Under the pieces are notes generated by a model. It was not told the origin of the DNA and made no database searches. It worked only from the letters and a program-made list of their open reading frames with translations. The position numbers and the translations under genes were made by a program. 64,000 bases of DNA from a virus. This document shows positions 3,363-48,511 of this stretch, piece after piece; position 1 is the first letter of the stretch; each line of letters starts with the position of its first letter. The stretch covers positions 35,223-99,222 of the IMG/VR virus record IMGVR_UViG_3300024319_000005. One strand, given 5' to 3'.

Positions 3363-6300
3363 TTAATAGTTGTTTTGTACTAAATTAATCCATGCATAGG
3401 TAGTGGCTCCTGTTTGCATACACATGTCTGCATAACTATTGTTTCCACTTGTTCTATATCTTATTGTTCCTACTTTACTTGCTGATGCTGTATCTGTGTC
3501 ATTGGCAATTTGAACTCCCCCATCTACTTGTAATTTAGAAGAAGGATTTGCAGTTCCTATTCCTACGCTACTAGTTGTACCGTCTATTCTTAACATTTCA
3601 GTACTGCCAATATTAAAAGTAATATCAGGCTCTACAAAACCATTAGCTTCAGTAGTAAAAACTGTTCCTCCAACGTTTGAAGATATTTCAACATAGTTAT
3701 TATCATCTGTTCCTATAGTAGCTGAACCACCTGAAACTTGTAACTTTGAATCAGGACTCTCAGTCCCTATACCTAAATTACCATTTGAATCAAATACTGC
3801 TATAGCAGTACCATTTTTGTGGTATCTTAAATCTCCTGCATTATTTGCATCTAATGTCCACTTACTAGTACCGTCTGCGCTCTCTATAGCTAACCCTTCT
3901 GCTATACCATCTACACTAGCTTTTACATGTAACTTAGAAGATGGGTTAGTAATACCAGATCCTATTTTTCCAGCAGCAGTAAAATTAGTAGATACAGCTC
4001 CTGACCCAGTAACATCTAAAGTTACAAGAGGATTAGTATTATTAATACCTACTTGACTACCTTTTATAGTCATTGTAGTATTTATAACTCCAGACTGTGC
4101 GGTATTAAAGTTTAATTGACCTCTTTCATTACCATCTGTGTATACACTTGTTACACTATTTATAGAAGAAAAAACTTCACTGCTTGCTGCAGAATTTAAA
4201 GCTTTAAACTCTATTAAACCGCTTGTAGTATTATTGCCAGTTACTCCACTGTCTGCTATTGTTATTTTAGGGTCAGCGTTAGTTGTAACTAATAAATCTC
4301 CTGTAGTTGTTTCTCCTGTAATTTCAAAATCCCCATCTACTCCTAAATTGTTTATTACAGTTACATCACCATTAGTATCTATTCTTAACAACTCATTACC
4401 GTGAGCATCAAGATTACCATCTTTTATAGATAGCCCACTAGCATCAGTTAATATTGTCCCTTGACCTCCTGATGTTGTATCAAAAGAAAGTATAGGACTT
4501 TGCCCATTAAGTGTTAATGAAGCTCCATCTGCAATATTAGAAATAGCTACTGTAGGCTTTATAGTAGTAGATGCATTATCTCCTACTGTTATTTCAGAGT
4601 TAGGGCTTGAAACTCCTACTCCTAAGTTTCCATCTGATGTTATACGTACACGCTCTGTAGGCGTGTCTGAGTCAGTTCCATTACCAAATACAAGGCTACC
4701 TGCTCCATCATTATATATTCTTGAATCTAAGCCACCTGCAGGTACAGATAAAATTAGTTCAGGAGTAGCTGATGTTATTTTAACAGAACCCTGTACTAAA
4801 GCATCTCCTACTACTTCTAATTTTTCACTAGGTGTAGTTGTTCCTATACCTACATTAGAAGTAGAATCATCTACTACTAAACCTGAGCCATTAGATCCTC
4901 CTACAGTATAAAAATTAACTGCCCCATCAGCATCTCCATCAGCATATAAACCACCATAAAAAGTACCATTAGAAGATTTAAAACTATAAACTTTATTCCA
5001 ATCTGCATTTGGACTTCCTGTAATAGTTACACGCCCTCCTCCAGTTACTGAAAATGATCCATTTTCATTATTTTCACCTATTTGTAAAGGGTATATTGGA
5101 ATACTAGTACCTATTCCTAGATTACCTTCGTTATTTATTCTTACAACTTCTCTATTCTGTGGAGAAACATTTCCTGTAGTATAAAATGCTAGTGCGCCTT
5201 TTGAGCCAAAAGCATTGTCTGATACTGAAGCAATTCTTGCCATAATATCATTAGTACTTCCTGGTGCAGTAGAGTTAGCTTTAAAATCAAGTGAGCCTGT
5301 AATATCTCCTTCAGACATAGCAAATAATCCTCCAGTAGCTCCTCCTGTTATTGTTACAGTTGAAGTTGTACTGTCGTTTACTATTTCTAATTCTGTTAGT
5401 GGGGTAATAGTTCCTATGCCAACATACCCTTGACCATTAATAGACATTTTCTCAGTTCTATCTGCAGGTAAAAAAGTATTATTATCTTGAGTAAAGAATC
5501 CTAGTCTAGGGTTTAAAGTAGCAGGGTCACTGTCAGTATTAATGTTTCTTATTTCTGAACCATACCACTCAACACCTGCACTATTTTTACTATTTAAAGT
5601 AATACCTACATACTCACCGTCAGCATCTGCTCCACTAGTAAAAGTTGCTATATTACCATTAGTTCCTGCGTTATCTACAGATAACTTTGATGTAGGAGAA
5701 GAAGTACCTACTCCTAAGTCTCCTTCTATAATAGCTCCATTTGTAGGAGCTGCAATATTATTATATCCAGTACCTACTCTTAAGTTACCTTCTATGTCTA
5801 GTTTAGAAGTAGGACTTGAATCTCCTATTCCTATATTATTGTTATTTTCAGTTACAACGCTGTCTTCAATTGTGTTTGAATCAGCCCATTTAGTTAATTT
5901 ACCTGCAGTACCAGTACCGTCTATTTTTTCATCTATTAAAATCTGTTGAGCATCTTGCTCATCCTTTAGTACTTTACCTTGACTAGCAGCTAAACTAATA
6001 GTGTTATCAGTTGAATCTAAACCATCATAAACATCTCTTTGTGCTATAGTAGTATCAACTGCATTACCATTATAAGTAGGTAAGCCATTTACATCTTCAC
6101 CAAAGTTATCTAAAACTGATTTATTAGCATGGGTGTGTGTACCTAATCCTATATAAGAAGTTACAGTACCATCAGCTAATAGTATTTCATCTACAGTTCC
6201 TCCATCTTTAATAAAGGCATTACTTTTTATATTGCCATCTACTTCTAAAGCTTCAGATGGACTTTGAGTTCCTACTCCTACATTACCTCCTAAAGGGTTT

Positions 6301-24109: not shown

Positions 24110-24318
24110 TTTTTTAGCACTTATTTTTAAAAAACTTTTAATCGAAGGAGAGTACTTATAAATAAGGGGTTGGGTTCATTTGAGGGTAGTGCATTAGAGC
24201 TTAAATATAAATTACATTATTTAAAAAATGGAAATATGGCGTAAAAAGTTGCCTAAAATAAAAAATTTTTTTTTTTAAAAAAATGGATTTGCGTATAGAT
24301 AACCTCCGTCGATGTATA

Positions 24319-24342
24319 CAAACAATTACCCCAAACTAATTA
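24319..24342 (+). promoter_or_regulatory. Conserved 24-nt box, copy 1 (candidate vRNAP early promoter)
   Basis: CAAACAATTACCCCAAACTAATTA, 75 nt upstream of the first plus-strand gene. Confidence 0.55.
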
Positions 24343-24740: not shown

Positions 24741-24785
24741 ACTTTGATACACTTCCTCTGAGCTTCGGCTCAGGGGATTAAAGCT

Positions 24786-24820
24786 TGACCTGAACATGTC
24801 GCAAACTGTTCTATTTTTTT
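24786..24820 (+). ncRNA. H-type pseudoknot plus U tract
   Basis: TGAC-CT-GAACA-T-GTCG-CAAAC-TGTTC-TATTTTTTT. Confidence 0.6.
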
Positions 24821-25190: not shown

Positions 25191-25196
25191 TAAGCT

Positions 25197-25231
25197 TGAC
25201 CTGAGTATGTCGCAAAAGACTCAATTTTTTT
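25197..25231 (+). ncRNA. H-type pseudoknot plus U tract (paralog of 24786)
   Basis: TGAC-C-TGAGT-AT-GTCG-CAAAAG-ACTCA-ATTTTTTT; stem 2 covaries with the 24786 copy. Confidence 0.6.
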
Positions 25232-25443: not shown

Positions 25444-25628
25444 TTATTCTTTTACTTGCTAAATTATATAATTATGTTACACCTAAAAATTGTATTCTTT
25501 TTCTATCTTATACTATCTATATGCTGCTTTACTACAATATTCGTAGGAGATTTACCTTATATAAGCCTTACCGCTACAATAGGACTAACCGTAGTCACTG
25601 TTACCGTAGGTCAATGCATCCAACGATG

Positions 25629-25652
25629 CAAACAACCTCCCCAATCTAATTA
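25629..25652 (+). promoter_or_regulatory. Conserved 24-nt box, copy 2
   Basis: CAAACAACCTCCCCAATCTAATTA. Confidence 0.55.
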
Positions 25653-26020: not shown

Positions 26021-26521
26021 ATGAAATACTTTATAACAATACTTACATTATTATCTATTACTAATTTCACTTATTCTCAAGACTATAGTTATGTAGATAA
26101 ACTATCTAACACTAACTATACTGAGTGGAATGGTCAAGTAGGACATACTAGTATAGAAAAACCTGTACGAGCTGTAATAGAATACCAAGGCAATTACAAT
26201 TTTATATTTAACTTAGTATTAAGTTTAGAAACTAAAGACAAAGGGTTTTTTACTTTACCTTTTAAAGCTACACATAGCACTGCTTTTGATGGCGAAAGTG
26301 GAACAGTTATCCTTAAATTAAAGGATTTTGGTAGTCCAGCTTTGTTTATAAAAATACAAATACCAAACAAGCATGGCTTTCAATGTATAGTACATTACTT
26401 ATACATTAAATCTTTTATAAATGATGTACCTCTTAGAATAGTAATAAAAGATCAAAAGATTATAGACATAATAGATACTCTTACTTCTTCAATAAATAAA
26501 CAAGAGTATTATGGTATATAA
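26021..26521 (+). CDS. Secreted hypothetical protein
   Basis: Signal peptide MKYFITILTLLSITNFTYS|Q. Confidence 0.7.
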   Translation: MKYFITILTLLSITNFTYSQDYSYVDKLSNTNYTEWNGQVGHTSIEKPVRAVIEYQGNYNFIFNLVLSLETKDKGFFTLPFKATHSTAFDGESGTVILKLKDFGSPALFIKIQIPNKHGFQCIVHYLYIKSFINDVPLRIVIKDQKIIDIIDTLTSSINKQEYYGI

Positions 26522-26669
26522 AGGATGGCAGATAGAAGAAGATGATTGGTTCAAAGACAATTATGTTGCTTGGGATTTAAATGATTGTGATAATCACAAT
26601 ATACTGCACAGTATTTCTCTAGAATCTATTAAAATAGAAATAGATGAGTACATTGACGATTATAATTAA
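26511..26669 (+). CDS. Small acidic protein (52 aa, not in track)
   Basis: MVYKGWQIEEDDWFKDNYVAWDLNDCD...EIDEYIDDYN*. Confidence 0.6.
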   Translation: MVYKGWQIEEDDWFKDNYVAWDLNDCDNHNILHSISLESIKIEIDEYIDDYN

Positions 26670-26687
26670 TGCCTTGAAATAACAGGC

Positions 26688-26716
26688 GAGTTTGGCAACT
26701 ACTCTAAATAAGTTGC
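26688..26716 (+). ncRNA. H-type pseudoknot
   Basis: GAGT-TTG-GCAACT-ACTC-TAAATA-AGTTGC. Confidence 0.6.
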
Positions 26717-26788
26717 ATTTACCTCAGTACAACATAGCTTAAGTAATCGTTAAGTAATATTGTTGTACTGGGTATTTTAAACAACAGT

Positions 26789-26926
26789 ATAGCGTCTCTT
26801 TTATGAGTGAGGTTAGATAGATAGGTAAGGTAACTATGTTACGTGAGCATGGAGTAGGATTGCAATTAAGCAATAAACTGAAATACGCTTTACTTACTAA
26901 TGAGAGTTCGAGTCTCTTGCGCTATA
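26789..26926 (+). ncRNA. tRNA-like RNA (acceptor stem and T-arm, enlarged core)
   Basis: ATAGCGT/GCGCTAT+A acceptor stem stacked on GAGAG-TTCGAGT-CTCTT T-arm; followed by a T tract. Confidence 0.65.
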
Positions 26927-26967
26927 TTTTTTTATTTCCTAACATCATTATTAAATTTATATAAAAA

Positions 26968-27342
26968 ATGAAACTTATTGACTATATCGTAATACTTTAC
27001 ATTATAATTTTTCTAACTTATGTACCATACAAATCTTACTGTATGTATTTAGATAATTTACCAACTAAGAGTTCTGTAGAATATTCATATACAGAACAAG
27101 CAAAAGTGTACATAGGAAAAGATAAATTAGAGCTTGAAGTTACATATTGTAACGACAATACTGAAATAAACTCTATGAAATCTGAAATAATAGGTGACTA
27201 CGTATTTGTAGGGTCATATGAAGATATGGAATCTATTATTAATTTATGTTTAGAGAACCAACCTATCGATAATACTGTTACATATCTTAGAGATTACTAT
27301 AAAAATATAGTAATAACATCATTAAATAACATTAAAATATAA
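26968..27342 (+). CDS. Hypothetical membrane-anchored protein
   Basis: N-terminal hydrophobic helix. Confidence 0.7.
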   Translation: MKLIDYIVILYIIIFLTYVPYKSYCMYLDNLPTKSSVEYSYTEQAKVYIGKDKLELEVTYCNDNTEINSMKSEIIGDYVFVGSYEDMESIINLCLENQPIDNTVTYLRDYYKNIVITSLNNIKI

Positions 27343-28769: not shown

Positions 28770-29031
28770 TTTCAAAAAGTATGATGTAGAAAATCCACAA
28801 GTGTGGTCACAGTTCAAAAGATTTGCATTTGAAGCTAAAGAAAAAGGCTTTAATAATTACTCTGCAAAAGGTATATTTGAATTGATTAGATGGCATACAG
28901 GAGTAAAAGGTACAGGTAATTATAAGTTATGTAATAACTATACACCTGATTATGCTAGAAAGATGATGAGAGAACACCCTGAGTTTGAGGGTTTCTTTAG
29001 GGTTAAACAACTTAAAGCTAAAAGATCGTGA
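28762..29031 (+). CDS. Conserved phage hypothetical protein
   Basis: YSAKGIFELIRW...LCNNYTPDYAR pattern. Confidence 0.7.
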   Translation: MINFKKYDVENPQVWSQFKRFAFEAKEKGFNNYSAKGIFELIRWHTGVKGTGNYKLCNNYTPDYARKMMREHPEFEGFFRVKQLKAKRS

Positions 29032-29873
29032 AGATAGTACCTTGGGTTAACAAAACGATAACACCTAAACCAAACGGTAGGAGCAGTGATTTTATTTCTG
29101 CTTCCTACATTTGGGGATGTAACGGTGGTTGTAAAAACTATTGTTATGTCTATCGTAATCAGAAGCAAACAGTAAATGTTGCTACCAATTTAGATCAAAT
29201 TGAAGCGGCTGTTACCAAACTAGCAAATAAATTGCCTTTGCACAAGCCACCTAATCAAATATCACAGAATGGTTTGTATTATCTTGATATTGGGTGTAAT
29301 TCTGATGTAGCACTATACAGTAAAAGAATTGAATTAGAAAGAATACTTAAATTTTATGACAATAATTTAAAACTTAACACTACTTTTGCTACTAAATACT
29401 CTAAATTACTGACACTAGATGTAAATCATTTTAATAAAAAACCTAGAGTTCGTGTATCATTGATGCCTGAACGACTAGCTACTGTATTAGAAAGTGGTTG
29501 TACATCAGTACCTGAACGTATTACTGACATAAAAAGATTACAAAGTCTTGGTTGGGAAGTACAGATTAATTTTAGTCCAGTTGTATTATATAATAACTGG
29601 CAAAGAGACTACAATGAGTTGTTTAAGATTATAGCTAATCAAGATATAGATGTACCTTGTGAAGTTATTATGTTAACAGGATCTGTAGCACCAAATATTC
29701 CTGAGTTTGAGCATAATTACTTGTTAAGTAATGAATTTCAAGAAGAAAAAATAACAAAATATGGTTCTAAAGCTAAAAGATATAACTATCATATGAAAAA
29801 AGGAGCTATAGAAAACTTTAAAACTATTTATTCAAAGTATTGGGATGTAAAAAACATCAGATACATTTTTTAA
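29028..29873 (+). CDS. Spore-photoproduct-lyase-like radical SAM protein
   Basis: GCNGGCKNYCYV, DIGCNSD, TFATKY, RVRVSLMP, INFSPVV. Confidence 0.85.
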   Translation: MKIVPWVNKTITPKPNGRSSDFISASYIWGCNGGCKNYCYVYRNQKQTVNVATNLDQIEAAVTKLANKLPLHKPPNQISQNGLYYLDIGCNSDVALYSKRIELERILKFYDNNLKLNTTFATKYSKLLTLDVNHFNKKPRVRVSLMPERLATVLESGCTSVPERITDIKRLQSLGWEVQINFSPVVLYNNWQRDYNELFKIIANQDIDVPCEVIMLTGSVAPNIPEFEHNYLLSNEFQEEKITKYGSKAKRYNYHMKKGAIENFKTIYSKYWDVKNIRYIF

Positions 29874-30125: not shown

Positions 30126-30252
30126 AATATTAAAATGTCTTTACTTTAGCTATAGGCTAAACTGGGAGTCCATCATAAAGGTACAAAGAATTTTTGATAT
30201 AACCATTTGGAACGTGGCTTTGCATTTACCTTGCATCATTGTACAGTTGATG

Positions 30253-30276
30253 CAAACCACACCCCCAATCTAATTA
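30253..30276 (+). promoter_or_regulatory. Conserved 24-nt box, copy 3
   Basis: CAAACCACACCCCCAATCTAATTA. Confidence 0.55.
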
Positions 30277-34081: not shown

Positions 34082-34723
34082 ATGAAAGTATACGTAATAG
34101 GTGGAGCTTTAAGTTACGCCAATATAGTAGATGAACCTAATATAGTTAATAATCCTGAAGATGCTGATGTAGCAATACTAACAGGTGGAGAAGATGTAAA
34201 TCCTGAACTTTACAATGAAATAGCACATTACACAACAAGCTTTAATACTAGTAGAGATGCTTATGAAATTTCTGAAGTAAATAAATGCTTAAAATTAGGA
34301 TTACCTATTATAGGTGTTTGTAGGGGTAGTCAATTAACTACAGTTATAAACGAAGGTAAATTAATACAAAATGTGGCAGGTCAACCTTATATTCATAAAG
34401 TAGTAGATGTACATTTAAATAAAGCTTATGAAGTAACTAGTACTCATCATCAAATGATGTTTCCTTTTAACTTAAATAGGACTAAGTATAAAGTTTTGGC
34501 TTTTGCTAAAAACTTAACTCATACATTTGAAGGACTACCTAAAGGCTTTAATAAGCCAGAAATAGAACCAGAGATTGTATATTATCCAGAAACTAATATG
34601 TTAGCAATTCAATCACATCCCGAGCATCTTGATGTAGGGAGTGAATTAAGAAATGTTTCTAACTATTATGTTTCAGCTTTAATTAAAAATGAGTTAAAGA
34701 ATAAATATACCATTGTTAATTAA
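34082..34723 (+). CDS. Class I glutamine amidotransferase / peptidase C26
   Basis: LTGGEDVNP, GVCRGSQ, STHHQ, QSHPE. Confidence 0.92.
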   Translation: MKVYVIGGALSYANIVDEPNIVNNPEDADVAILTGGEDVNPELYNEIAHYTTSFNTSRDAYEISEVNKCLKLGLPIIGVCRGSQLTTVINEGKLIQNVAGQPYIHKVVDVHLNKAYEVTSTHHQMMFPFNLNRTKYKVLAFAKNLTHTFEGLPKGFNKPEIEPEIVYYPETNMLAIQSHPEHLDVGSELRNVSNYYVSALIKNELKNKYTIVN

Positions 34724-40479: not shown

Positions 40480-40795
40480 AGATAAGTATGCTTCTGTTAC
40501 TAATTTAAGAGGCGATATTGAAGATTATTTAGAAAGAAGAGATTGGAATTTAGATATTTATTGTGAATTACGTAAAAAGTCAATTAGTTTACAAAAAGAA
40601 GACTTAGATGGTCCTGAAATTTATACAAGAGAAATAGACAGACCAAATTTTGAGATACAAGTCCCTGTAAATATAGATAATTTAAACTTAGTCAATGGCG
40701 ATGATTTTGAGTTAACTAGAGATGATGCAAGGATTACAATATTAAAATTAAACAATTATTTAAAAACTATAACAAATTTCGTATGTGTAAAGTAG
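40457..40795 (+). CDS. Hypothetical protein
   Basis: ORF overlapping both neighbours. Confidence 0.65.
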   Translation: MIYYVKYRDKYASVTNLRGDIEDYLERRDWNLDIYCELRKKSISLQKEDLDGPEIYTREIDRPNFEIQVPVNIDNLNLVNGDDFELTRDDARITILKLNNYLKTITNFVCVK

Positions 40796-41487
40796 GACTA
40801 ATTTACCCTAATTTAAATTATCAAGGAAAGTATGAAGTTAATGGTGCTTATGTAGATTATTTTTCTAAGTTTGGAGAAATTGTACCTATAACACCTGAAT
40901 GTCCATACGTAGAAGACCTAGATGTCTTAGTTTTGACTGGAGGTGCTGATATTAATCCTATTAGATATGGTGATTTTCCGAAAGAATCAGGAGCACCTAA
41001 TCTAGAATATGATTATTTTGAACAAGTAATGCTAAGTTTGTATATAGATGCTAATATTCCTATTGTAGGTATATGTAGAGGTATGCAAGCTTTGTTTGTA
41101 CATTACGGTGGTAAATTAAATCAACATGAAGATTTACCAACAAGTACATCTAAAGGTAATTATCTTACCCAGCATTTAAATATGGGGAGTAGAGGTAAAA
41201 TTGTAGAACACTTAAAGCTAACACCTAGCTTTAACCACTTGAAGAAACTAAAGAAAGTTAATCTAGGAATTAATTCTTTACATCATCAGACTGCAAATTT
41301 AAAAACTATGCCTAAAGAGATAGTTCCTATTGGTTATTCTGAAGAGAATAAAAACTTAGAGCTATTTACAGTAAAGAATAAAAACATTTTAGCTTTTCAA
41401 GGACATGTTGAAGAGTTAAGCAATACAAAATTATTTGATCATTTAATAAAAAATACTATCAATGGAAAATTGGCTAATTGGAACTGA
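40783..41487 (+). CDS. Peptidase C26 / PuuD-like class I GATase
   Basis: LTGGADINP, GICRGMQ, NSLHHQ, FQGHVE. Confidence 0.92.
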   Translation: MCKVGLIYPNLNYQGKYEVNGAYVDYFSKFGEIVPITPECPYVEDLDVLVLTGGADINPIRYGDFPKESGAPNLEYDYFEQVMLSLYIDANIPIVGICRGMQALFVHYGGKLNQHEDLPTSTSKGNYLTQHLNMGSRGKIVEHLKLTPSFNHLKKLKKVNLGINSLHHQTANLKTMPKEIVPIGYSEENKNLELFTVKNKNILAFQGHVEELSNTKLFDHLIKNTINGKLANWN

Positions 41488-42304
41488 TTATGAATTTGGA
41501 ATCTCTAAAAATGGAGAACCTATTTCAATCGTAGGGAAAATAGGAGGTACAAAAAACGAACCTCTAGATATTGGGAATGGATGTGCAAGACAAGAAGATA
41601 ATGTAAATGCAGAGGTAACACAACCCCCTGTTAATAATTTTAAAGATTTTGTTAAGTACATTGAATATGGACTAACGACTATTAAGTCAATGGTTCCTAG
41701 TCACGACCTTAACTTTAATTCATTAGAGATATACTCCGATGAAGAATTAAACACGTATGAAGCGCAAGTATTTGGCTGTGAAAGCAGTTTTGATGTCTAC
41801 GCTAGAGGATTAAGCAAGCCAGCAGTGGCTACTAACCCTAATTTAAGAAGTGCTGGTTTTCATATACACTTTGGTAATGACAAAATAGCTAATAACAATC
41901 AAGAAATGGAAAAGCTTGTAAAGTTATTTGATAAATATGTTACTATACCATCTATGTTAATAGACCCTGAAAAAGGTCGTAGAGAACTTTATGGTAGAGC
42001 AGGTGAATTTAGAATGAAATCATACGGTTTAGAATGTAGACAACTTGGTTCATTCTTTTTATCTGATTTTAGACTTATTGAATGGGTATGGGAAGGAGTT
42101 CAAAAATGTATTACTCAGTATGAGCTTGGAGAAGATTTAAATTTAGATTCTATGTTTAATAGAAATGATATAAATGATTCTTGTATTGCTGAAGATATTA
42201 TTAATGGATATGATTTACAAGCTGCTAAAGAGTTTTGTGACGCTAATAATATTAATTATTTAAAAAAAGAAATATGCAAAGAGCTTATGTCTATGGTAGC
42301 TTAA
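41462..42304 (+). CDS. phiEco32-like COOH-NH2 ligase (type 2)
   Basis: IGTDYEF, QEDNVNAE, FGCE, RSAGFHIHFG, RRELYGRAGEFR, GLECR. Confidence 0.9.
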   Translation: MENWLIGTDYEFGISKNGEPISIVGKIGGTKNEPLDIGNGCARQEDNVNAEVTQPPVNNFKDFVKYIEYGLTTIKSMVPSHDLNFNSLEIYSDEELNTYEAQVFGCESSFDVYARGLSKPAVATNPNLRSAGFHIHFGNDKIANNNQEMEKLVKLFDKYVTIPSMLIDPEKGRRELYGRAGEFRMKSYGLECRQLGSFFLSDFRLIEWVWEGVQKCITQYELGEDLNLDSMFNRNDINDSCIAEDIINGYDLQAAKEFCDANNINYLKKEICKELMSMVA

Positions 42305-42613: not shown

Positions 42614-43981
42614 ATGTGTGGAATTAGTGGAGCTATAGGCTCTAAAATAGACATGGAAAAAGTTAAACTATTAGGTTTACTTAATGAAGATCGAGGCGGT
42701 GACGCTGTAGGTATTTATGCTAATAAAACAGTATCAAAAACAATTAAAAGTTATTATCATCTATTACAACAAGATGACTTTCCTAAAAAAGCAAAGGGGA
42801 TAGCCTTAAATCACTCTAGAAAAAGCTCTAGTGGAGGTAATAACATATTAAATGCACAGCCATTAATGGTAGATAATGATGTATTTGTATTAAATGGTAC
42901 TGTAAAAAATATAAATACTTTAGAAAGAATTACAGGAATAGAAGAAGAGCAGTTAGATAATGATACAGCTTATTTGTTTAGGTTAATGAGAGCTGGTAAC
43001 ACTGAATGGTTAAAATACTATACAGGTGGAGCTACTTTTGTATACAGACATAAAACTAAAACTACGTTTTGGGTCGGTGCTGCTAATGGAAAAGTAGAAA
43101 GACCTTTAAGTTTTTGTTATGTAAATGGTACTATGTATTTTTCATCTTTAGAACGAGATTTAAAATTAGTATCAGGAAATAATAAGATTACTCATTTTAA
43201 AGTAAATACATTAATTACTGTAGATAATGAAGGTAATATTGTATTAGAAGAACCTATTGATAGAACTATACCTCATATTGAGCTTAGTAATTTACAAAAG
43301 AAACTTCTTGCTTGTCCTTATAATGAAAGCTATTCTACTTTAGAGTCTTTAAACGCTGGTAATAATGTAGTAATATTTTGTGGAGGTGCTTATTATTTAA
43401 ATAATGAGTTTTATACAGGTAAAGCTAAACTTGATAAGCATTCTAAACTTATTAAAACTACTATGCAAGACTCTATGGCAACTTATTTCTTTAAAAATGG
43501 CATATTAGTAAAAGACAATTTCTTTAAAAGTGGGTATAATAACAGTCATTTAGCATTGTATTCTAATACAGGTTATGACGAACCTACAATTGAAGATAGA
43601 ATTGTATCTAATGCTCATACTATTGGGTTAAGTGATTCAGATTATGGATTAATACAAGATTCTATGAGTTCAGAAATGTTATATTATAGTGCAGATTTAC
43701 ATAGTCATTTTTACAATGGAGCTTTAGCTGATGGAATTATTAGTCCTATTGGTTCTTCAACTCATTACCATTTTAGTAATGGTCATTTTGTAAAGATGTC
43801 TTATTACTCTCCAGAAGAATTTATGGACAAAGTAGAAGATCTACATAATGATATAGATAATTTACTATATGAATTTGATTTAGAAGATTTAGATGTCGAA
43901 GGAGCATCAATATTTGAAACTTTAAAACAATACAAACAATATGTTAAGAATAGTAACGAAGAGTGGAAGAGTATTACTTAA
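42614..43981 (+). CDS. Class II (Ntn) glutamine amidotransferase
   Basis: MCGISG, RGGDAVG, HSRKSS, NAQP, NGTVKN, ERPL. Confidence 0.88.
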   Translation: MCGISGAIGSKIDMEKVKLLGLLNEDRGGDAVGIYANKTVSKTIKSYYHLLQQDDFPKKAKGIALNHSRKSSSGGNNILNAQPLMVDNDVFVLNGTVKNINTLERITGIEEEQLDNDTAYLFRLMRAGNTEWLKYYTGGATFVYRHKTKTTFWVGAANGKVERPLSFCYVNGTMYFSSLERDLKLVSGNNKITHFKVNTLITVDNEGNIVLEEPIDRTIPHIELSNLQKKLLACPYNESYSTLESLNAGNNVVIFCGGAYYLNNEFYTGKAKLDKHSKLIKTTMQDSMATYFFKNGILVKDNFFKSGYNNSHLALYSNTGYDEPTIEDRIVSNAHTIGLSDSDYGLIQDSMSSEMLYYSADLHSHFYNGALADGIISPIGSSTHYHFSNGHFVKMSYYSPEEFMDKVEDLHNDIDNLLYEFDLEDLDVEGASIFETLKQYKQYVKNSNEEWKSIT

Positions 43982-45383
43982 AAGTGCTTGTACTCTAATT
44001 AATAATGAATGGTATGAAGTAGGTAACCGTAATAAATTTGAAAGTGGTGAAGTATATCAAATTGGAGCAAAGTTTAATTTTGCTAATGAACTATACTGGA
44101 ACGCTAATAAGAAAAGATATTACAGACTTACTGAAAATATAGCATATGGGTATAGCAAAACTTTTAATAATTTATGCCATTTTAAAAAGACAAAGTATAC
44201 AGTTAAAATAGATAGGTATAAAGAGTTGTTTCTAGAAGATTATAGAGATTTTCCTACTATGAACTATAATGGTAGATTTAACATTTTTATGGAAGGTGAA
44301 CCATCTGCTTATGTAGTAAGTTATGATGATTACAATACAAGGCTGTATGGTGCTGATGATAACATAATGTTTGATAAAGCTTGGGCAGCATACCAAATAA
44401 AAACTCAAGTAGCTGCCGCAGAAGAAAATGTACCTAAAGTTAACATAGTGCCAGAACTATTTGATTATAGTTTTGGAGTAGAGTTTGAAACTTCTTCAGG
44501 ATCATTACACAGTACTATGTTAGAAGATTCTTTCTTAATACCTGTAAAAGATGGTAGTATTGATGGCTATGAGTATATTAGTGTGCCTATGCAAAATGAA
44601 TTAGACACTTTAAAAACTCAATGCCACTATTTATCTAGACAATGTAATGTAAATAAAAAGACAAGTACTCATATACACTTAGGTAACTTACCTAGAACTA
44701 AAGAGTTTGCACTTTCTTTTTACATACTTATGTATAGATTTCAAAATGAGATCAATGCAATGTTTCCACCACTTAAAAAGTTACTTAGATCTTTAGATGA
44801 TCACGGTAACAAAGAAGCAAAGGATTACTGTAAGTTTCTACCTGAGTTAAATTTAATGTATGGTAGGCATTATATAGATAGAAATGGAGAAATTGACCAA
44901 GATGAGTTAGATGAAGGATACAGAGATCTTTGGACTTTCTGGAATGATGGAGAAGCTCCTAGTGAAAATTTCAACCCACAAAATAGAACACACCGCAAAG
45001 CTCATTTAGCTAAATGGAACTATGTAAATAGGTATTCTATTGTGAATATGAACAATTATTTTTTTACTAATTCTAGAACTATTGAGTTTAGATACCATGA
45101 AGGTACATTAAACTTTGGTAAAGTTAGTAATTGGATTTTATTGAACATAGCGTTTGTAAAATTTGCTGAAAATCATGCAAAAGAAATACTTAGTAGTAAT
45201 ACTAAGATTACATTTAAGGATATTTTATCCGAACTAGGTAATAAAAGCCTAGAAACACATTTAAGTGATTATATTTACGAAAGAAAAACTGAAATGAGTA
45301 GACATTACTCTGCACAGAATCCTTTTTATCAAATATATGACTTAGATAAAACAAAAGAATGCACATGGCAAAATCTGAAGTAG
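43941..45383 (+). CDS. Amidoligase (Amidoligase_2-type) with N-terminal extension
   Basis: FGVEFET, DGSI, YEYIS, STHIH, TIEFRYHEGT. Confidence 0.88.
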   Translation: MLRIVTKSGRVLLKSACTLINNEWYEVGNRNKFESGEVYQIGAKFNFANELYWNANKKRYYRLTENIAYGYSKTFNNLCHFKKTKYTVKIDRYKELFLEDYRDFPTMNYNGRFNIFMEGEPSAYVVSYDDYNTRLYGADDNIMFDKAWAAYQIKTQVAAAEENVPKVNIVPELFDYSFGVEFETSSGSLHSTMLEDSFLIPVKDGSIDGYEYISVPMQNELDTLKTQCHYLSRQCNVNKKTSTHIHLGNLPRTKEFALSFYILMYRFQNEINAMFPPLKKLLRSLDDHGNKEAKDYCKFLPELNLMYGRHYIDRNGEIDQDELDEGYRDLWTFWNDGEAPSENFNPQNRTHRKAHLAKWNYVNRYSIVNMNNYFFTNSRTIEFRYHEGTLNFGKVSNWILLNIAFVKFAENHAKEILSSNTKITFKDILSELGNKSLETHLSDYIYERKTEMSRHYSAQNPFYQIYDLDKTKECTWQNLK

Positions 45384-45823: not shown

Positions 45824-46451
45824 ACCAGGCATTCAATATCAAAACAAAAGCTTACAATACCTATACCCTAGTATTAGATTAACTAACAAAAGCATTTATG
45901 CTTACTTGTTAAATAATTTTGAAATACTAGGGGTAGGTGTAGGCGATTTGGCATACGATATTAAATCTACTTTAGACGATACTTTTTATATCCTTGTTGA
46001 TGTTTATGGAGTCTATAAAAATGGATCCTACATACAAGAAGATTACTATAGAAGAAAGTTTGAAACAGGATTAGCTATGATTAAACAAAAAAAAGGGTTT
46101 GTAACAGACTATACTTTTAAAGATAATCAACATATGATAGTAATAAATTTACCATACTCTAATATGAAGATTGATTTTTTACAAGGTAACTATAGTTGTA
46201 TTTACCCAGAGCCTCAAGAAATTGATTTATTATTTCCAAAAAGTAGAATGCTAAAAAAGATTGAAGTTAGAAATCAAGATAATTTAGTACTGCATAAAGA
46301 CGTACAAGCTAGACCTAAGTTTAGGGAGCTGTTACGCAATGAATTTGGATTTACTGAAGATGTTGAAAGAGATGTCGAATTTGATTTACCACCTTTATTT
46401 AAAGAAGAGGTGTTTAATCACCATTTATTAACAGAATTAATGACATTCTAA
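45792..46451 (+). CDS. Hypothetical protein
   Basis: 219 aa ORF with FLQGNYS.IY pattern. Confidence 0.7.
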   Translation: MWSKKNQITIKPGIQYQNKSLQYLYPSIRLTNKSIYAYLLNNFEILGVGVGDLAYDIKSTLDDTFYILVDVYGVYKNGSYIQEDYYRRKFETGLAMIKQKKGFVTDYTFKDNQHMIVINLPYSNMKIDFLQGNYSCIYPEPQEIDLLFPKSRMLKKIEVRNQDNLVLHKDVQARPKFRELLRNEFGFTEDVERDVEFDLPPLFKEEVFNHHLLTELMTF

Positions 46452-47419
46452 TGAACCAAAATATAATGCCTAATAAAGAAAAGCTAATACTAACTGGTAA
46501 GCATGGAAGACCTTCTACTATAGAAGCTTTTAAAGATTGCCAGTTAGGAGAATTAGTACAGCGTAGGCAGTTTACAAAGAAAAATGGAAAGTTTGTTAAG
46601 TACTATAGAGTATTTGATCAGCTAAACAAAATTAATTACAGAAAGCATAAAACAAATAGAATAAATGCAAAAGATTCTATAGTTCTTAGGTGGGGTACAC
46701 AAGAACCTTTTGATACTAATAACAAATCAATAGTTTACAATAAGATACCTGGTCTACAAAATGCAACTAATAAAGGCTTATCTAGAGTCTTAATGCATAA
46801 AGCAGGAGTTAGAGTACCTACAATTATTACACCTAAAAATATAACAGAAGATCATCTACCTATTATTAGTAGACCTTTTGTACATAGTAAAGGTAAAAAC
46901 TTTATAGTATTAAATACTATTAAAGAATTCAATGCACATTATAGTCCTGCAACTCATTACTATGCAGAGTTTATAGATAAGCAGTTAGAATTTAGAGCTC
47001 ATGTTGGTCATGGTAAAGTACTAAGGCTAATGGCAAAGCAAAATCCTAACAATGGTAACTTAGCTTGGAATATTGCCGCCAATAGAGGAGGTAATGTAGC
47101 AGAAGATGTAGGAGGGTTTAAAGTTATTCGTTGGAATAACGCAGAACCTTATTTAGATGTGCTAAAACAATCAGTACATGCAGTTGAAGCTTTAGGATTA
47201 GACTGCGGTGGGGTAGATGTAATGTTTAAAGATGGTAAAGCTTATGTTCTTGAAGTAAATACAGCTCCTACTTTAAACTCATGTCCTACAACAGCTAAAC
47301 GATGGGGCATGTATTGGAATTGGTTATTTAATTCTGAGTCTAGAAGAGATCATTATGATTGGAGAATATGGCAAAAAGCTAAATCTTTCTTTTTTAAAAA
47401 CGAACAATTAATAAATTAA
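46451..47419 (+). CDS. ATP-grasp ligase (RimK-like)
   Basis: LRWG, ATNK, GVRVP, EFRAHV, ALGLDCGGVDV, VLEVNTAP. Confidence 0.9.
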   Translation: MNQNIMPNKEKLILTGKHGRPSTIEAFKDCQLGELVQRRQFTKKNGKFVKYYRVFDQLNKINYRKHKTNRINAKDSIVLRWGTQEPFDTNNKSIVYNKIPGLQNATNKGLSRVLMHKAGVRVPTIITPKNITEDHLPIISRPFVHSKGKNFIVLNTIKEFNAHYSPATHYYAEFIDKQLEFRAHVGHGKVLRLMAKQNPNNGNLAWNIAANRGGNVAEDVGGFKVIRWNNAEPYLDVLKQSVHAVEALGLDCGGVDVMFKDGKAYVLEVNTAPTLNSCPTTAKRWGMYWNWLFNSESRRDHYDWRIWQKAKSFFFKNEQLIN

Positions 47420-47825: not shown

Positions 47826-48036
47826 AAATAAAACACGTAAACAAAGTACTGGTAGAGTAACCAATACTTTTAATAGTTTAAAGTCTGATAATATAGTTCT
47901 TACAAGAGATCTATACATAGCTGCTGGTATAATTGACAAGCAACAAGCTGAAATTAAAAGCAAAGATGATCAGATAGTAAGACTAAAGAAAAGACTTCAA
48001 ATTGCAAATATAGAAGATTTAGGAGAAGATGAGTAA
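47818..48036 (+). CDS. Hypothetical coiled-coil protein
   Basis: ORF overlapping both neighbours. Confidence 0.65.
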   Translation: MAKNKTRKQSTGRVTNTFNSLKSDNIVLTRDLYIAAGIIDKQQAEIKSKDDQIVRLKKRLQIANIEDLGEDE

Positions 48037-48511
48037 GCTAATATTAACTGTTGGTATTCCTGGTAGTGGCAAATCTACTTGGAGCCAGCAGTACATTCGA
48101 GAAAATCCTAATACTGTTAGAGTAAATTCTGACAGATTAAGAGAAATGTTATTTGCCTATAATCCTGCTAAAATAAAAGAATATTGGAAAAATAGTAATT
48201 TACAAGATACAGAATCAATTGTAAGAAAAGTTGTAAGAAACATAACAACTAATCTACTTAATAAAAATATTAATGTAATTGTAGATGCTATGAATTTAGA
48301 TGAAGCTGTAATTACTAAATTTATTAATATAGCTAAATTAAACCAATCTTCTGTAGTAATTAAAGAATTTAATACCCCACTAGATACATGTGTAAGAAGA
48401 GATCAGCAAAGAGAAAGATATGTGGGTAAAATTTATATAACTAAAAAACAAGAGCAATTTACAAAATTAAAAAATACTGAATTTTACATTGCTCTTCCTA
48501 AATTAATTTAA
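48029..48511 (+). CDS. Polynucleotide-kinase-like P-loop kinase (kinase domain only)
   Basis: GIPGSGKST, VNSDRLR, VIVDAMN, CVRRD. Confidence 0.88.
   Translation: MSKLILTVGIPGSGKSTWSQQYIRENPNTVRVNSDRLREMLFAYNPAKIKEYWKNSNLQDTESIVRKVVRNITTNLLNKNINVIVDAMNLDEAVITKFINIAKLNQSSVVIKEFNTPLDTCVRRDQQRERYVGKIYITKKQEQFTKLKNTEFYIALPKLI

Follow-up and report, generated by a model that had tools for sequence, protein, structure and literature searches.

We describe an RNA gene of 138 nucleotides (nt) in an uncultured virus, whose product has the shape of the 'top half' of a transfer RNA (tRNA), i.e. an acceptor stem stacked on a T-arm, and carries a long branched arm in place of the anticodon arm. The gene occupies positions 26789-26926 on the plus strand of a 64,000-nt stretch of DNA, hereafter called the window, which comprises bases 35223-99222 of the 99,222-base pair (bp) IMG/VR record IMGVR_UViG_3300024319_000005 (estimated completeness 89%); coordinates refer to the window unless another sequence is named. 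Comparison of five copies of the RNA reveals that its fold is under selection on the plus strand, and that the gene is a single-copy, autonomous unit situated among early genes. Because a branched, variable arm stands in place of the anticodon arm, the RNA cannot decode. On balance, we think that the gene probably encodes a stand-alone structured mimic of the tRNA top half that acts in trans on a tRNA-recognizing factor.

A sequence-only reading of this DNA had proposed a tRNA mimic without a normal anticodon arm, and covariation among the homologs described below strengthens that proposal. The parts of the RNA, whose nucleotides are numbered 1-138, are as follows.

26789-26926, plus strand: the whole tRNA-shaped RNA gene, 138 nt, matched by the covariance models R1 (168 bits) and R2 (163 bits).
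26789-26795, plus strand: acceptor stem, 5' strand (nt 1-7), paired with 26919-26925.
26796-26811, plus strand: D-like mini-hairpin, CUC (8-10) with GAG (21-23), 9-10-nt loop with a conserved G-N-G.
26812-26831, plus strand: long arm, 5' strand (nt 24-28, a 5-nt bulge at 29-33, and nt 34-43), partner of 26887-26901.
26834-26852, plus strand: hairpin 1, 7 bp, loop ACGUG.
26853-26879, plus strand: hairpin 2, a 3-bp base and a 5-bp inner stem.
26887-26901, plus strand: long arm, 3' strand (nt 99-113), partner of 26812-26831.
26902-26918, plus strand: T-arm (nt 114-130), 5-bp stem and 7-nt T-loop UUCGAGU.
26919-26926, plus strand: acceptor stem, 3' strand (nt 131-137), and discriminator A (nt 138); CCA not encoded.
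26927-26933, plus strand: tract of seven U residues immediately 3' of the discriminator, likely a terminator or 3' trailer.

The acceptor stem is formed by AUAGCGU (nt 1-7) and GCGCUAU (nt 131-137), which make six Watson-Crick pairs and one U.G pair, and it is stacked directly on the T-arm GAGAG-UUCGAGU-CUCUU. These elements, together with the discriminator A, lie at 26789-26926 on the plus strand as they were originally read, and the reported lack of an encoded CCA and of a G3:U70 pair holds as well (an A3-U70 pair is seen instead). The small CTC/GAG hairpin of the initial description also exists, but the partner of its CUC strand is the GAG at nt 21-23, and the UGAGG segment that had been likened to a D-loop is mostly stem. 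Similarly, the long helix capped by two hairpins is present and is reproduced by the minimum-energy fold, which also recovers the acceptor stem and the T-arm, but its base had to be redrawn: nt 24-28 pair with 109-113 (G24-G28 with C109-U113), followed by the 5-nt bulge and then by a helix between 34-43 and 99-108. In the window copy the arm has a helix of 15 bp, interrupted by the bulge, and two terminal hairpins with loops of 4-6 nt, and in the four close copies it ends in a three-way junction from which two hairpins emerge. The four arms of the RNA meet in a four-way junction that has zero linker nucleotides, unlike a tRNA, in which positions 8-9, position 26 and the variable loop connect the arms. 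The window copy contains eight G.U pairs, which the opposite strand would carry as A.C mismatches, and the fold is therefore specific to the plus strand.

Copies of the RNA were identified by several routes. A metagenome scan seeded with relatives of the downstream open reading frame (ORF) gave two loci, L005 and L006, which share ~97% and ~79-88% nucleotide identity with the window and carry copies at 2512-2649 and 2824-2957, respectively. R1, the covariance model built from these two copies and that of the window, matches a far more diverged copy of 146 nt at L008:5317-5462 (32 bits, E ~1e-6 to 1e-7). This copy belongs to G001, the only IMG/VR relative with a DNA polymerase 77% identical to that of the window, whose contig was the sole product of IMG/VR searches seeded with the DNA polymerase. 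Another copy, at 1067-1203 of L009/L012 in a third viral record (G002), was found with a degenerate pattern composed of the invariant features of the RNA. The family comprises five copies in four lineages, of which only L008 is deeply diverged, and there is a single copy in each of the three viral records. A lack of conservation, which the sequence-only reading had named as an outcome that would count against it, is contradicted by the four further copies. The degenerate pattern also matched a bacterial metagenome-assembled genome (L011), a match that we attribute to chance, as it lies in what is apparently coding sequence, has no T-stem and is unmatched by R2. Among GenBank phages, blastn detected no homologs with either the region or the G001 copy as the query, and none came from exact-pattern scans of IMG/VR (using the 3' end and two interior blocks) or from IMG/VR locus searches seeded with the downstream ORF protein. 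R1 matches genuine T4 tRNAs weakly, with scores of 17.6, 16.8 and 10.7 bits.

Base pairing within the RNA has been retained through sequence change. In a model-fitted alignment of the five copies, standard pairs fill 99.5% of 206 pair cells of the revised structure, and 13 double-sided pair changes are observed, as compared to 0-4 after displacement of the 3' partners by 1-3 columns; in 500 column shuffles, pairing and change values as high as those observed never arise. As a model-fitted alignment leans towards its model, the count was repeated on a plain MAFFT alignment, in which the gap-free acceptor, D-like and T helices are 100% paired and contain seven double-change pairs. In the acceptor stem, every cell is paired. 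Pairs 4, 5 and 6 are swapped on both sides in L008 (G-C/C-G/G-C to C-G/U-A/C-G), where the stem reads AUACUCU/GGAGUAU, and in tRNA numbering the A1-U72, U2-A71 and A3-U70 pairs and the U7.G66 wobble are constant across the five copies. The T-stem is GAGAG/CUCUU in the window, AGAGG/CCUCU in G002 and UGUGG/CCACA in L008; in four of its five pairs both members differ among copies, and the loop-closing G-C pair is constant. The latter is equivalent to the G53-C61 pair, which is near-universal in tRNAs. The T-loop is UUCRAGU in all five copies, with a G57 to A57 change in L006 that stays within the tRNA consensus, and all five also share A73, the U at position -1, and a run of 5-8 T residues located 0-4 nt past the discriminator. 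The 10-bp helix 34-43/99-108 is likewise 100% paired, with four pairs changed on both sides and three on one side, such that the distal sequence UAGGUAAGGU/GCUUUACUUA of the window becomes UAAUAAUAAC/GUUAUUAUUA in L008; the 5-nt bulge of the long arm is absent from L008. Compensatory changes among homologs, which had been suggested as a check on the mimic, are found in the acceptor, T and long helices.

The remainder of the arm varies to a greater extent. The four close copies all retain hairpin 1 and differ there only by one-sided changes (G.U/A-U). Outside hairpin 2, the substitutions in L006 either lie in loops or preserve pairing (G.U to G-C, A-U to G.U, U.G to U-A and U-A to U.G), and within hairpin 2 the inner stem AUUGC/GCAAU is wholly replaced in L006 by ACAGUA/UGCUGU, yet the hairpin fold persists. 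The 71-nt interior of L008 is unrelated to that of the other copies and has different hairpins.

Several other ways of drawing or reading the RNA were considered and rejected. The register 8-10/17-19, which is the D-hairpin of the minimum-energy fold, fails in two copies and is paired in 86.7% of cells as compared to 100% for 8-10/21-23, and the register 30-32/109-111 is less consistent across the homologs than 24-28/109-113. A hammerhead-like three-way junction in the interior is a poor description, as the junction strands of 2, 0 and 7 nt do not fit. An ATG-initiated ORF of 42 amino acids (aa) at 26836-26964 overlaps the 3' two-thirds of the RNA, but it stops after 13 codons in L006 and is absent from L008, and it is not a gene.

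The motif CTCTTT-N5-8-GAGGTT, which contains the D-like stem, is expected 0.03 times per 64-kb window. In the G001 copy the CTCTTT-N-GAGGTT motif occurs twice, at the 5' end (L008:5324-5341) and in the interior arm (5373-5389), which suggests an internal duplication or a repeated protein-binding hairpin. This copy lies in ~1.4 kb (L008:4092-5489) that has no plus-strand ORF of at least 40 aa and extends from the first early gene to the gene after the RNA. A second, weak R1 match without a T-arm is located there at 4704-4817 (11 bits), and other structured RNAs may lie in this stretch.

How often such an arrangement would arise by chance was estimated in 200 Markov-simulated genomes of the same composition, using as the pattern a TTCRANY loop on a 5-bp stem followed directly by a 7-mer whose complement lies 60-260 nt upstream. 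A T-arm joined to a 7-bp acceptor stem occurs in 37% of the simulated genomes when any number of G.U pairs is allowed, and in 15% when at most one is allowed, and the pattern is not significant on the basis of a single sequence. We count the element as real because it is conserved, with covariation, in four further copies. These frequencies, together with a folding z-score of about -1, are what might be expected of a chance resemblance, a decayed tRNA pseudogene, or a site that acts at the DNA level, such as an attP copy of the 3' end of a host tRNA. However, the compensatory changes in three helices across lineages largely refute this family of explanations, the element is the sole nucleotide-level conservation with G002, and its G.U pairs make the structure strand-specific. 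In addition, its 24-nt 3' end is present in no species-representative prokaryotic genome, and no integrase was found among the ORFs scanned. We consider an origin of this kind exceedingly improbable.

The RNA escapes detection by the tools used to identify known RNA classes. ARAGORN, run in its default, intron and tmRNA modes on the window and on the whole 99-kb genome, reports no genes, and Rfam returns no match at its gathering threshold, while those that appear at E <= 10 are noise; the RNA does not score as an ordinary or intron-containing tRNA, the second outcome that the sequence-only reading had set against itself. It resembles tRNA (RF00005) in having a covarying 7-bp acceptor stem stacked on a 5-bp T-stem, a UUCRAGU loop with its invariant closing G-C pair, a discriminator, and a U at position -1. 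It falls below every detector threshold, however, and differs in several respects. In place of a D-arm with 3-4 bp and G18 G19, it has the 3-bp CUC/GAG stem, which starts at nt 8 and bears a G-N-G loop; the linkers at 8-9 and 26 and the variable loop are missing from its junction; and no anticodon stem-loop (5-bp stem, 7-nt loop, U33 and purine 37) is present, as no hairpin in the RNA has a 7-nt loop with U33.

An unconventional decoding tRNA would have to be either an intron-containing pre-tRNA with an insert of ~60-70 nt, or a tRNA that uses a distal hairpin as its anticodon arm. When its threshold is relaxed to 80% and introns are allowed, ARAGORN does draw the window copy as a 'tRNA-Lys(CUU)' cloverleaf with a 69-nt intron. 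The relaxed calls for the five copies are, however, Lys CUU, Leu UAG, Lys UUU, Lys UUU and Phe GAA, with differing boundaries and intron positions, such that neither an anticodon nor a splice site is shared; at the standard threshold ARAGORN makes no call with or without its -i option, and there is none by Rfam at E <= 10. Moreover, no hairpin with a conserved 7-nt loop, U33 and purine 37 is available, and the long helix covaries over its full 10 bp, which extends past any 5-bp anticodon stem. The known bacterial tRNA introns are self-splicing group I introns that are much longer than the insert in question. A decoding role is very unlikely.

The layout also invites comparison with the tRNA-like domain of transfer-messenger RNA (tmRNA, SsrA), as the sequence-only reading had observed: an acceptor stem formed by the ends of the molecule is followed by a T-arm, a reduced D region, and a long helix at the place of the anticodon stem. 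That reading had also described the element as much shorter and devoid of a tag reading frame, and both points agree with our results, since no ORF is conserved in the RNA (in L006 the frame is closed by a stop after 13 codons, and L008 has an unrelated interior). tmRNAs are ~350 nt or more in length, whereas this RNA is ~138 nt, and it also lacks pseudoknots. The alanine identity pair of tmRNA, G3:U70, is replaced by A3-U70 in five of five copies, and in its tmRNA mode ARAGORN finds nothing even at a 70% threshold (-ps70). It is not a tmRNA, and it is not a decoding tRNA. In the bacterial Y-RNA YrlA, the ends form a helix that binds the Ro protein (Rsr) and the tRNA-like module is distal. The topology here is the opposite, as the RNA ends form the acceptor stem instead of a Ro-binding stem, and neither tmRNA nor YrlA appears among Rfam matches at E <= 10. 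Thus, even with the topological match to the tmRNA domain, a minimal tmRNA-like ribosome-rescue RNA or a YrlA-like module is an extremely unlikely identity.

YrlA, mascRNA, the t-elements of plant mitochondria and RNase P-processed phage RNAs such as C4 of P1 and P7 are non-decoding RNAs in which an acceptor/T module can be read by the tRNA-processing machinery. None has sequence in common with the family described here, which also has no Rfam match, and mascRNA and the t-elements are eukaryotic or organellar. The t-elements have been described as tRNA-like processing modules (PMC1920247).

The nearest counterpart in layout is species 1 RNA of phage T4 (RNAC, gene rnaC; AF158101 70908-71046). 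Like the RNA of the window, it is a small phage-encoded RNA (139 as compared to 138 nt). When the T4 sequence (L007:1909-2047, minus strand) is folded, a canonical T-arm appears at 114-130, the same coordinates as in our RNA, stacked on a 7-position acceptor-like stem (2-8/131-137) that joins the ends, and the interior consists of long hairpins in place of an anticodon arm; CCA is not encoded in either RNA. Nevertheless, the acceptor-like stem of RNAC has two U.U mismatches, and RNAC has neither the CUC/GAG D-like hairpin nor the linker-free four-way junction. It is a late RNA encoded within a tRNA gene cluster, whereas the present gene lies in the early arm of a genome with no detected tRNA genes. 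No homology to rnaC is detectable, as neither R1 nor R2 matches L007 at 1909-2047, and Rfam contains no family for RNAC. The relationship between the two RNAs is one of design and not of membership, and the RNA described here constitutes a new family, with T4 RNAC as its nearest neighbour in layout. The literature still lists the function of RNAC as unknown (PMC3014915, PMC9697503, PMC12685909).

Sequence comparison shows the RNA to be more conserved than its neighbouring genes. The only nucleotide similarity between the 24.6-kb G002 record and the genome of the window is the element itself with 10 nt upstream and 16 nt downstream, a stretch of 165 nt with 88.5% identity, whereas the best protein similarity anywhere in the G002 fragment is 44% across a 68-aa segment. 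Homologs of the two ORFs that flank the RNA in the window have 34% and 38% protein identity over most of their lengths, and in G002 both lie downstream of the RNA, in a gene order that differs from that of the window. Conversely, G001 has the closer polymerase (77% identity) and the most diverged RNA. This contrast between G001 and G002 indicates that the RNA behaves as a self-contained unit, which is either under very strong selection or exchanged between phages. The unit conserved in G002 spans the end of the leader with U(-1) and the U-tract, and contains no recognizable promoter.

The main rival to a trans-acting RNA is a module that punctuates or terminates the early transcript in cis, much as a t-element would. 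According to this explanation, the tRNA-like shell serves only to let RNase P, 3' processing enzymes and the U-tract cut and end the transcript and protect the upstream messenger RNA, and the excised RNA has no function of its own. The position of the RNA is consistent with such a role, since it occupies an intergenic site in the orientation of the early genes, each copy is trailed by a U-tract, the next gene begins 28-44 nt downstream, and, as noted, the unit shared with G002 lacks a recognizable promoter; the shell is also conserved where the L008 interior differs completely. The sequence TAnnTTTG is the -7 promoter box of Bacteroidota, and the 3' end and trailer TATATTTT (26919-26934), present in every copy (L005, L006, L009 and L008), resembles it. 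On the other hand, a processing signal needs no branched interior of 60-70 nt, and the interior (hairpin 1 and the junction strands) is nearly identical where the flanking proteins share just 34-38% identity. The RNA also retains its sequence amid changing neighbours and gene order, a pattern suggestive of a self-contained gene. Furthermore, a consensus terminator scan makes no call at the RNA. Of the two parts of an intrinsic terminator, a G+C-rich hairpin and a U-tract directly after it, the tract trails all copies, and the helix that adjoins it is the acceptor stem, whose strands enclose an interior of 123 nt. We regard a purely cis-acting role as possible but unlikely. As a separate observation, TATATTTT may double as a U-tract and a promoter element.

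For the trans-acting mimic that we favor, the following pathway can be envisaged. The RNA would be transcribed together with the early genes, and a cut by RNase P between the invariant U(-1) and A(+1) would free its 5' end. The 3' end would arise at or near the U-tract and be trimmed to A73, to which a host enzyme would add CCA, yielding a stable tRNA-shaped product of ~141 nt. RNase P and the CCA-adding enzyme recognize a 12-bp coaxial stack of acceptor and T stems, a T-loop, U(-1) and A73, and the 12-bp stack, U(-1) and A73 are found in all copies. The mature RNA may then occupy, or be acted on by, a factor that reads the acceptor stem, T-arm or elbow in trans; candidates include a synthetase, EF-Tu, a tRNA-modifying or tRNA-repair enzyme, and a tRNA-targeting defence nuclease. 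The sequence-only reading had proposed that the RNA could be a decoy for host tRNA-targeting nucleases or could bind ribosomes or synthetases. Because the anticodon arm is absent and the distal arm is variable, the selected function should lie in the invariant shell, which would consist of the identity of the acceptor end, two wobble pairs at the junction, the D-like hairpin and the T-loop. A more specific proposal, which we consider quite unlikely in this exact form, is that a CCA-ended, anticodon-less top half acts in trans, either as a sponge or as a surrogate substrate, upon a host factor that reads only the acceptor, T-arm or elbow of tRNAs. Its targets might be, for example, an anti-phage enzyme active on tRNA acceptor ends, which it would damage or modify, or a synthetase or EF-Tu, in which case the RNA would be aminoacylated yet never decode.

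Several observations weigh against a trans-acting mimic. The folding energy of the window copy is ordinary (z = -1.0), and single-sequence z-scores range from -1.0 to -2.7. The letters of the D-like CUC/GAG stem are identical in all five copies and thus provide zero covariation support. The family is small, and one or two lineages (L008 and G002) supply the majority of the double changes. The complete difference of the L008 interior fits equally well with a shell that is only a processing signal. Judged from the modeled secondary structure, an L-shaped elbow is plausible, but the junction has no linkers and the D-like loop carries G-N-G instead of GG. Lastly, a search near the RNA gene revealed no tRNA-related phage enzyme, and no promoter for the RNA gene was identified.

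The virus itself has a G+C content of ~31%. PHROG matches place the large terminase, portal and major head protein on the minus strand, and a family-A DNA polymerase, helicases and ribonucleotide reductase on the plus strand. The best GenBank-phage matches of the DNA polymerase are crAss-like phages (IAS virus, crAss001, cr112_1 and others) at ~25% identity, and on these matches we assign the phage as an uncultured, distant crAss-like virus. ARAGORN finds no standard tRNA genes across the whole 99,222-bp genome (~89% complete), of which the tRNA-shaped RNA is the sole tRNA-like gene. It sits in a 298-nt gap between two small early ORFs (26511-26669 and 26968-27342), both co-oriented with it and neither of known function, ~2 kb inside an early arm that is highly variable among relatives. 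Upstream of the RNA, the gap contains two further features.

26671-26715, plus strand: conserved non-coding block of 45 nt, directly 3' of the stop codon of the upstream ORF.
26716-26788, plus strand: lineage-specific 73-nt leader, with a 10-bp hairpin (26725-26734/26761-26770).

The conserved block is 95.6% identical to L006, as compared to 79-83% in the flanking coding DNA, and the hairpins GCCT/AGGC and GCAACT/AGTTGC lie within it. The block and the RNA are 4 nt apart in L006, whereas in the window the hairpin-bearing 73-nt leader is inserted between them. The leader has no counterpart in L006, and similarity to G002 begins at 26779, so that only its final ~10 nt, U(-1) included, are common to the window and G002; the leader is probably outside the RNA proper.

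Other repeated elements occur in this part of the genome. A 28-nt box (GATGCAAACAACCTCCCCAATCTAATTA and variants) is present in three copies in early intergenic regions (24315-24342, 25625-25652 and 30249-30276), which are retained at homologous sites in L005 and L006 (25-28 of 28 positions), and a weaker ortholog is found in G001 at L008:3688. The boxes may be early promoters, and none lies directly upstream of the RNA. A dedicated promoter of this type was considered and rejected, as the similar-looking sequence that precedes the G001 copy agrees with each of the boxes at fewer than 19 of 28 positions. Two 40-nt repeats (AAGCTTGACCTGA...TTTTTTT; 24781-24820 and 25192-25231), each with a run of seven T residues at its end, follow consecutive early genes and look like terminators. 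Finally, the genes at 29028-29873, 34082-34723, 40783-41487, 41462-42304, 42614-45383, 46451-47419 and 48029-48511 make up a set comprising an SPL-like radical SAM enzyme, two C26/class-I glutamine amidotransferases, a phiEco32-type COOH-NH2 ligase, an Ntn-type amidotransferase, an amidoligase, an ATP-grasp enzyme and an AAA_33 P-loop kinase. This set looks like a pathway for peptide ligation or DNA-base hypermodification, and no link between it and the RNA was found.

Standard tRNA and Rfam scans miss this class of RNA entirely. Its invariant consensus consists of A1-U72, U2-A71, A3-U70, U7.G66, A73, the CUC/GAG hairpin with G-N-G, and UUCRAGU. Non-decoding tRNA-shaped RNAs of phages, such as RNAC and RNAD of T4, have never been assigned a function. 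The family described here, from environmental crAss-like phages, a group very unlike that of T4, is a second and independent case in which a tRNA top half is combined with a variable arm, and its covariation and far better conservation than that of neighbouring genes argue that this design has been selected for a purpose. It is now known that phages deploy tRNAs of their own to counter tRNA-targeting host defences, and if the RNA were to act as a sponge for a tRNA-reading host factor, this would also suggest a function for the analogous RNAC of T4.

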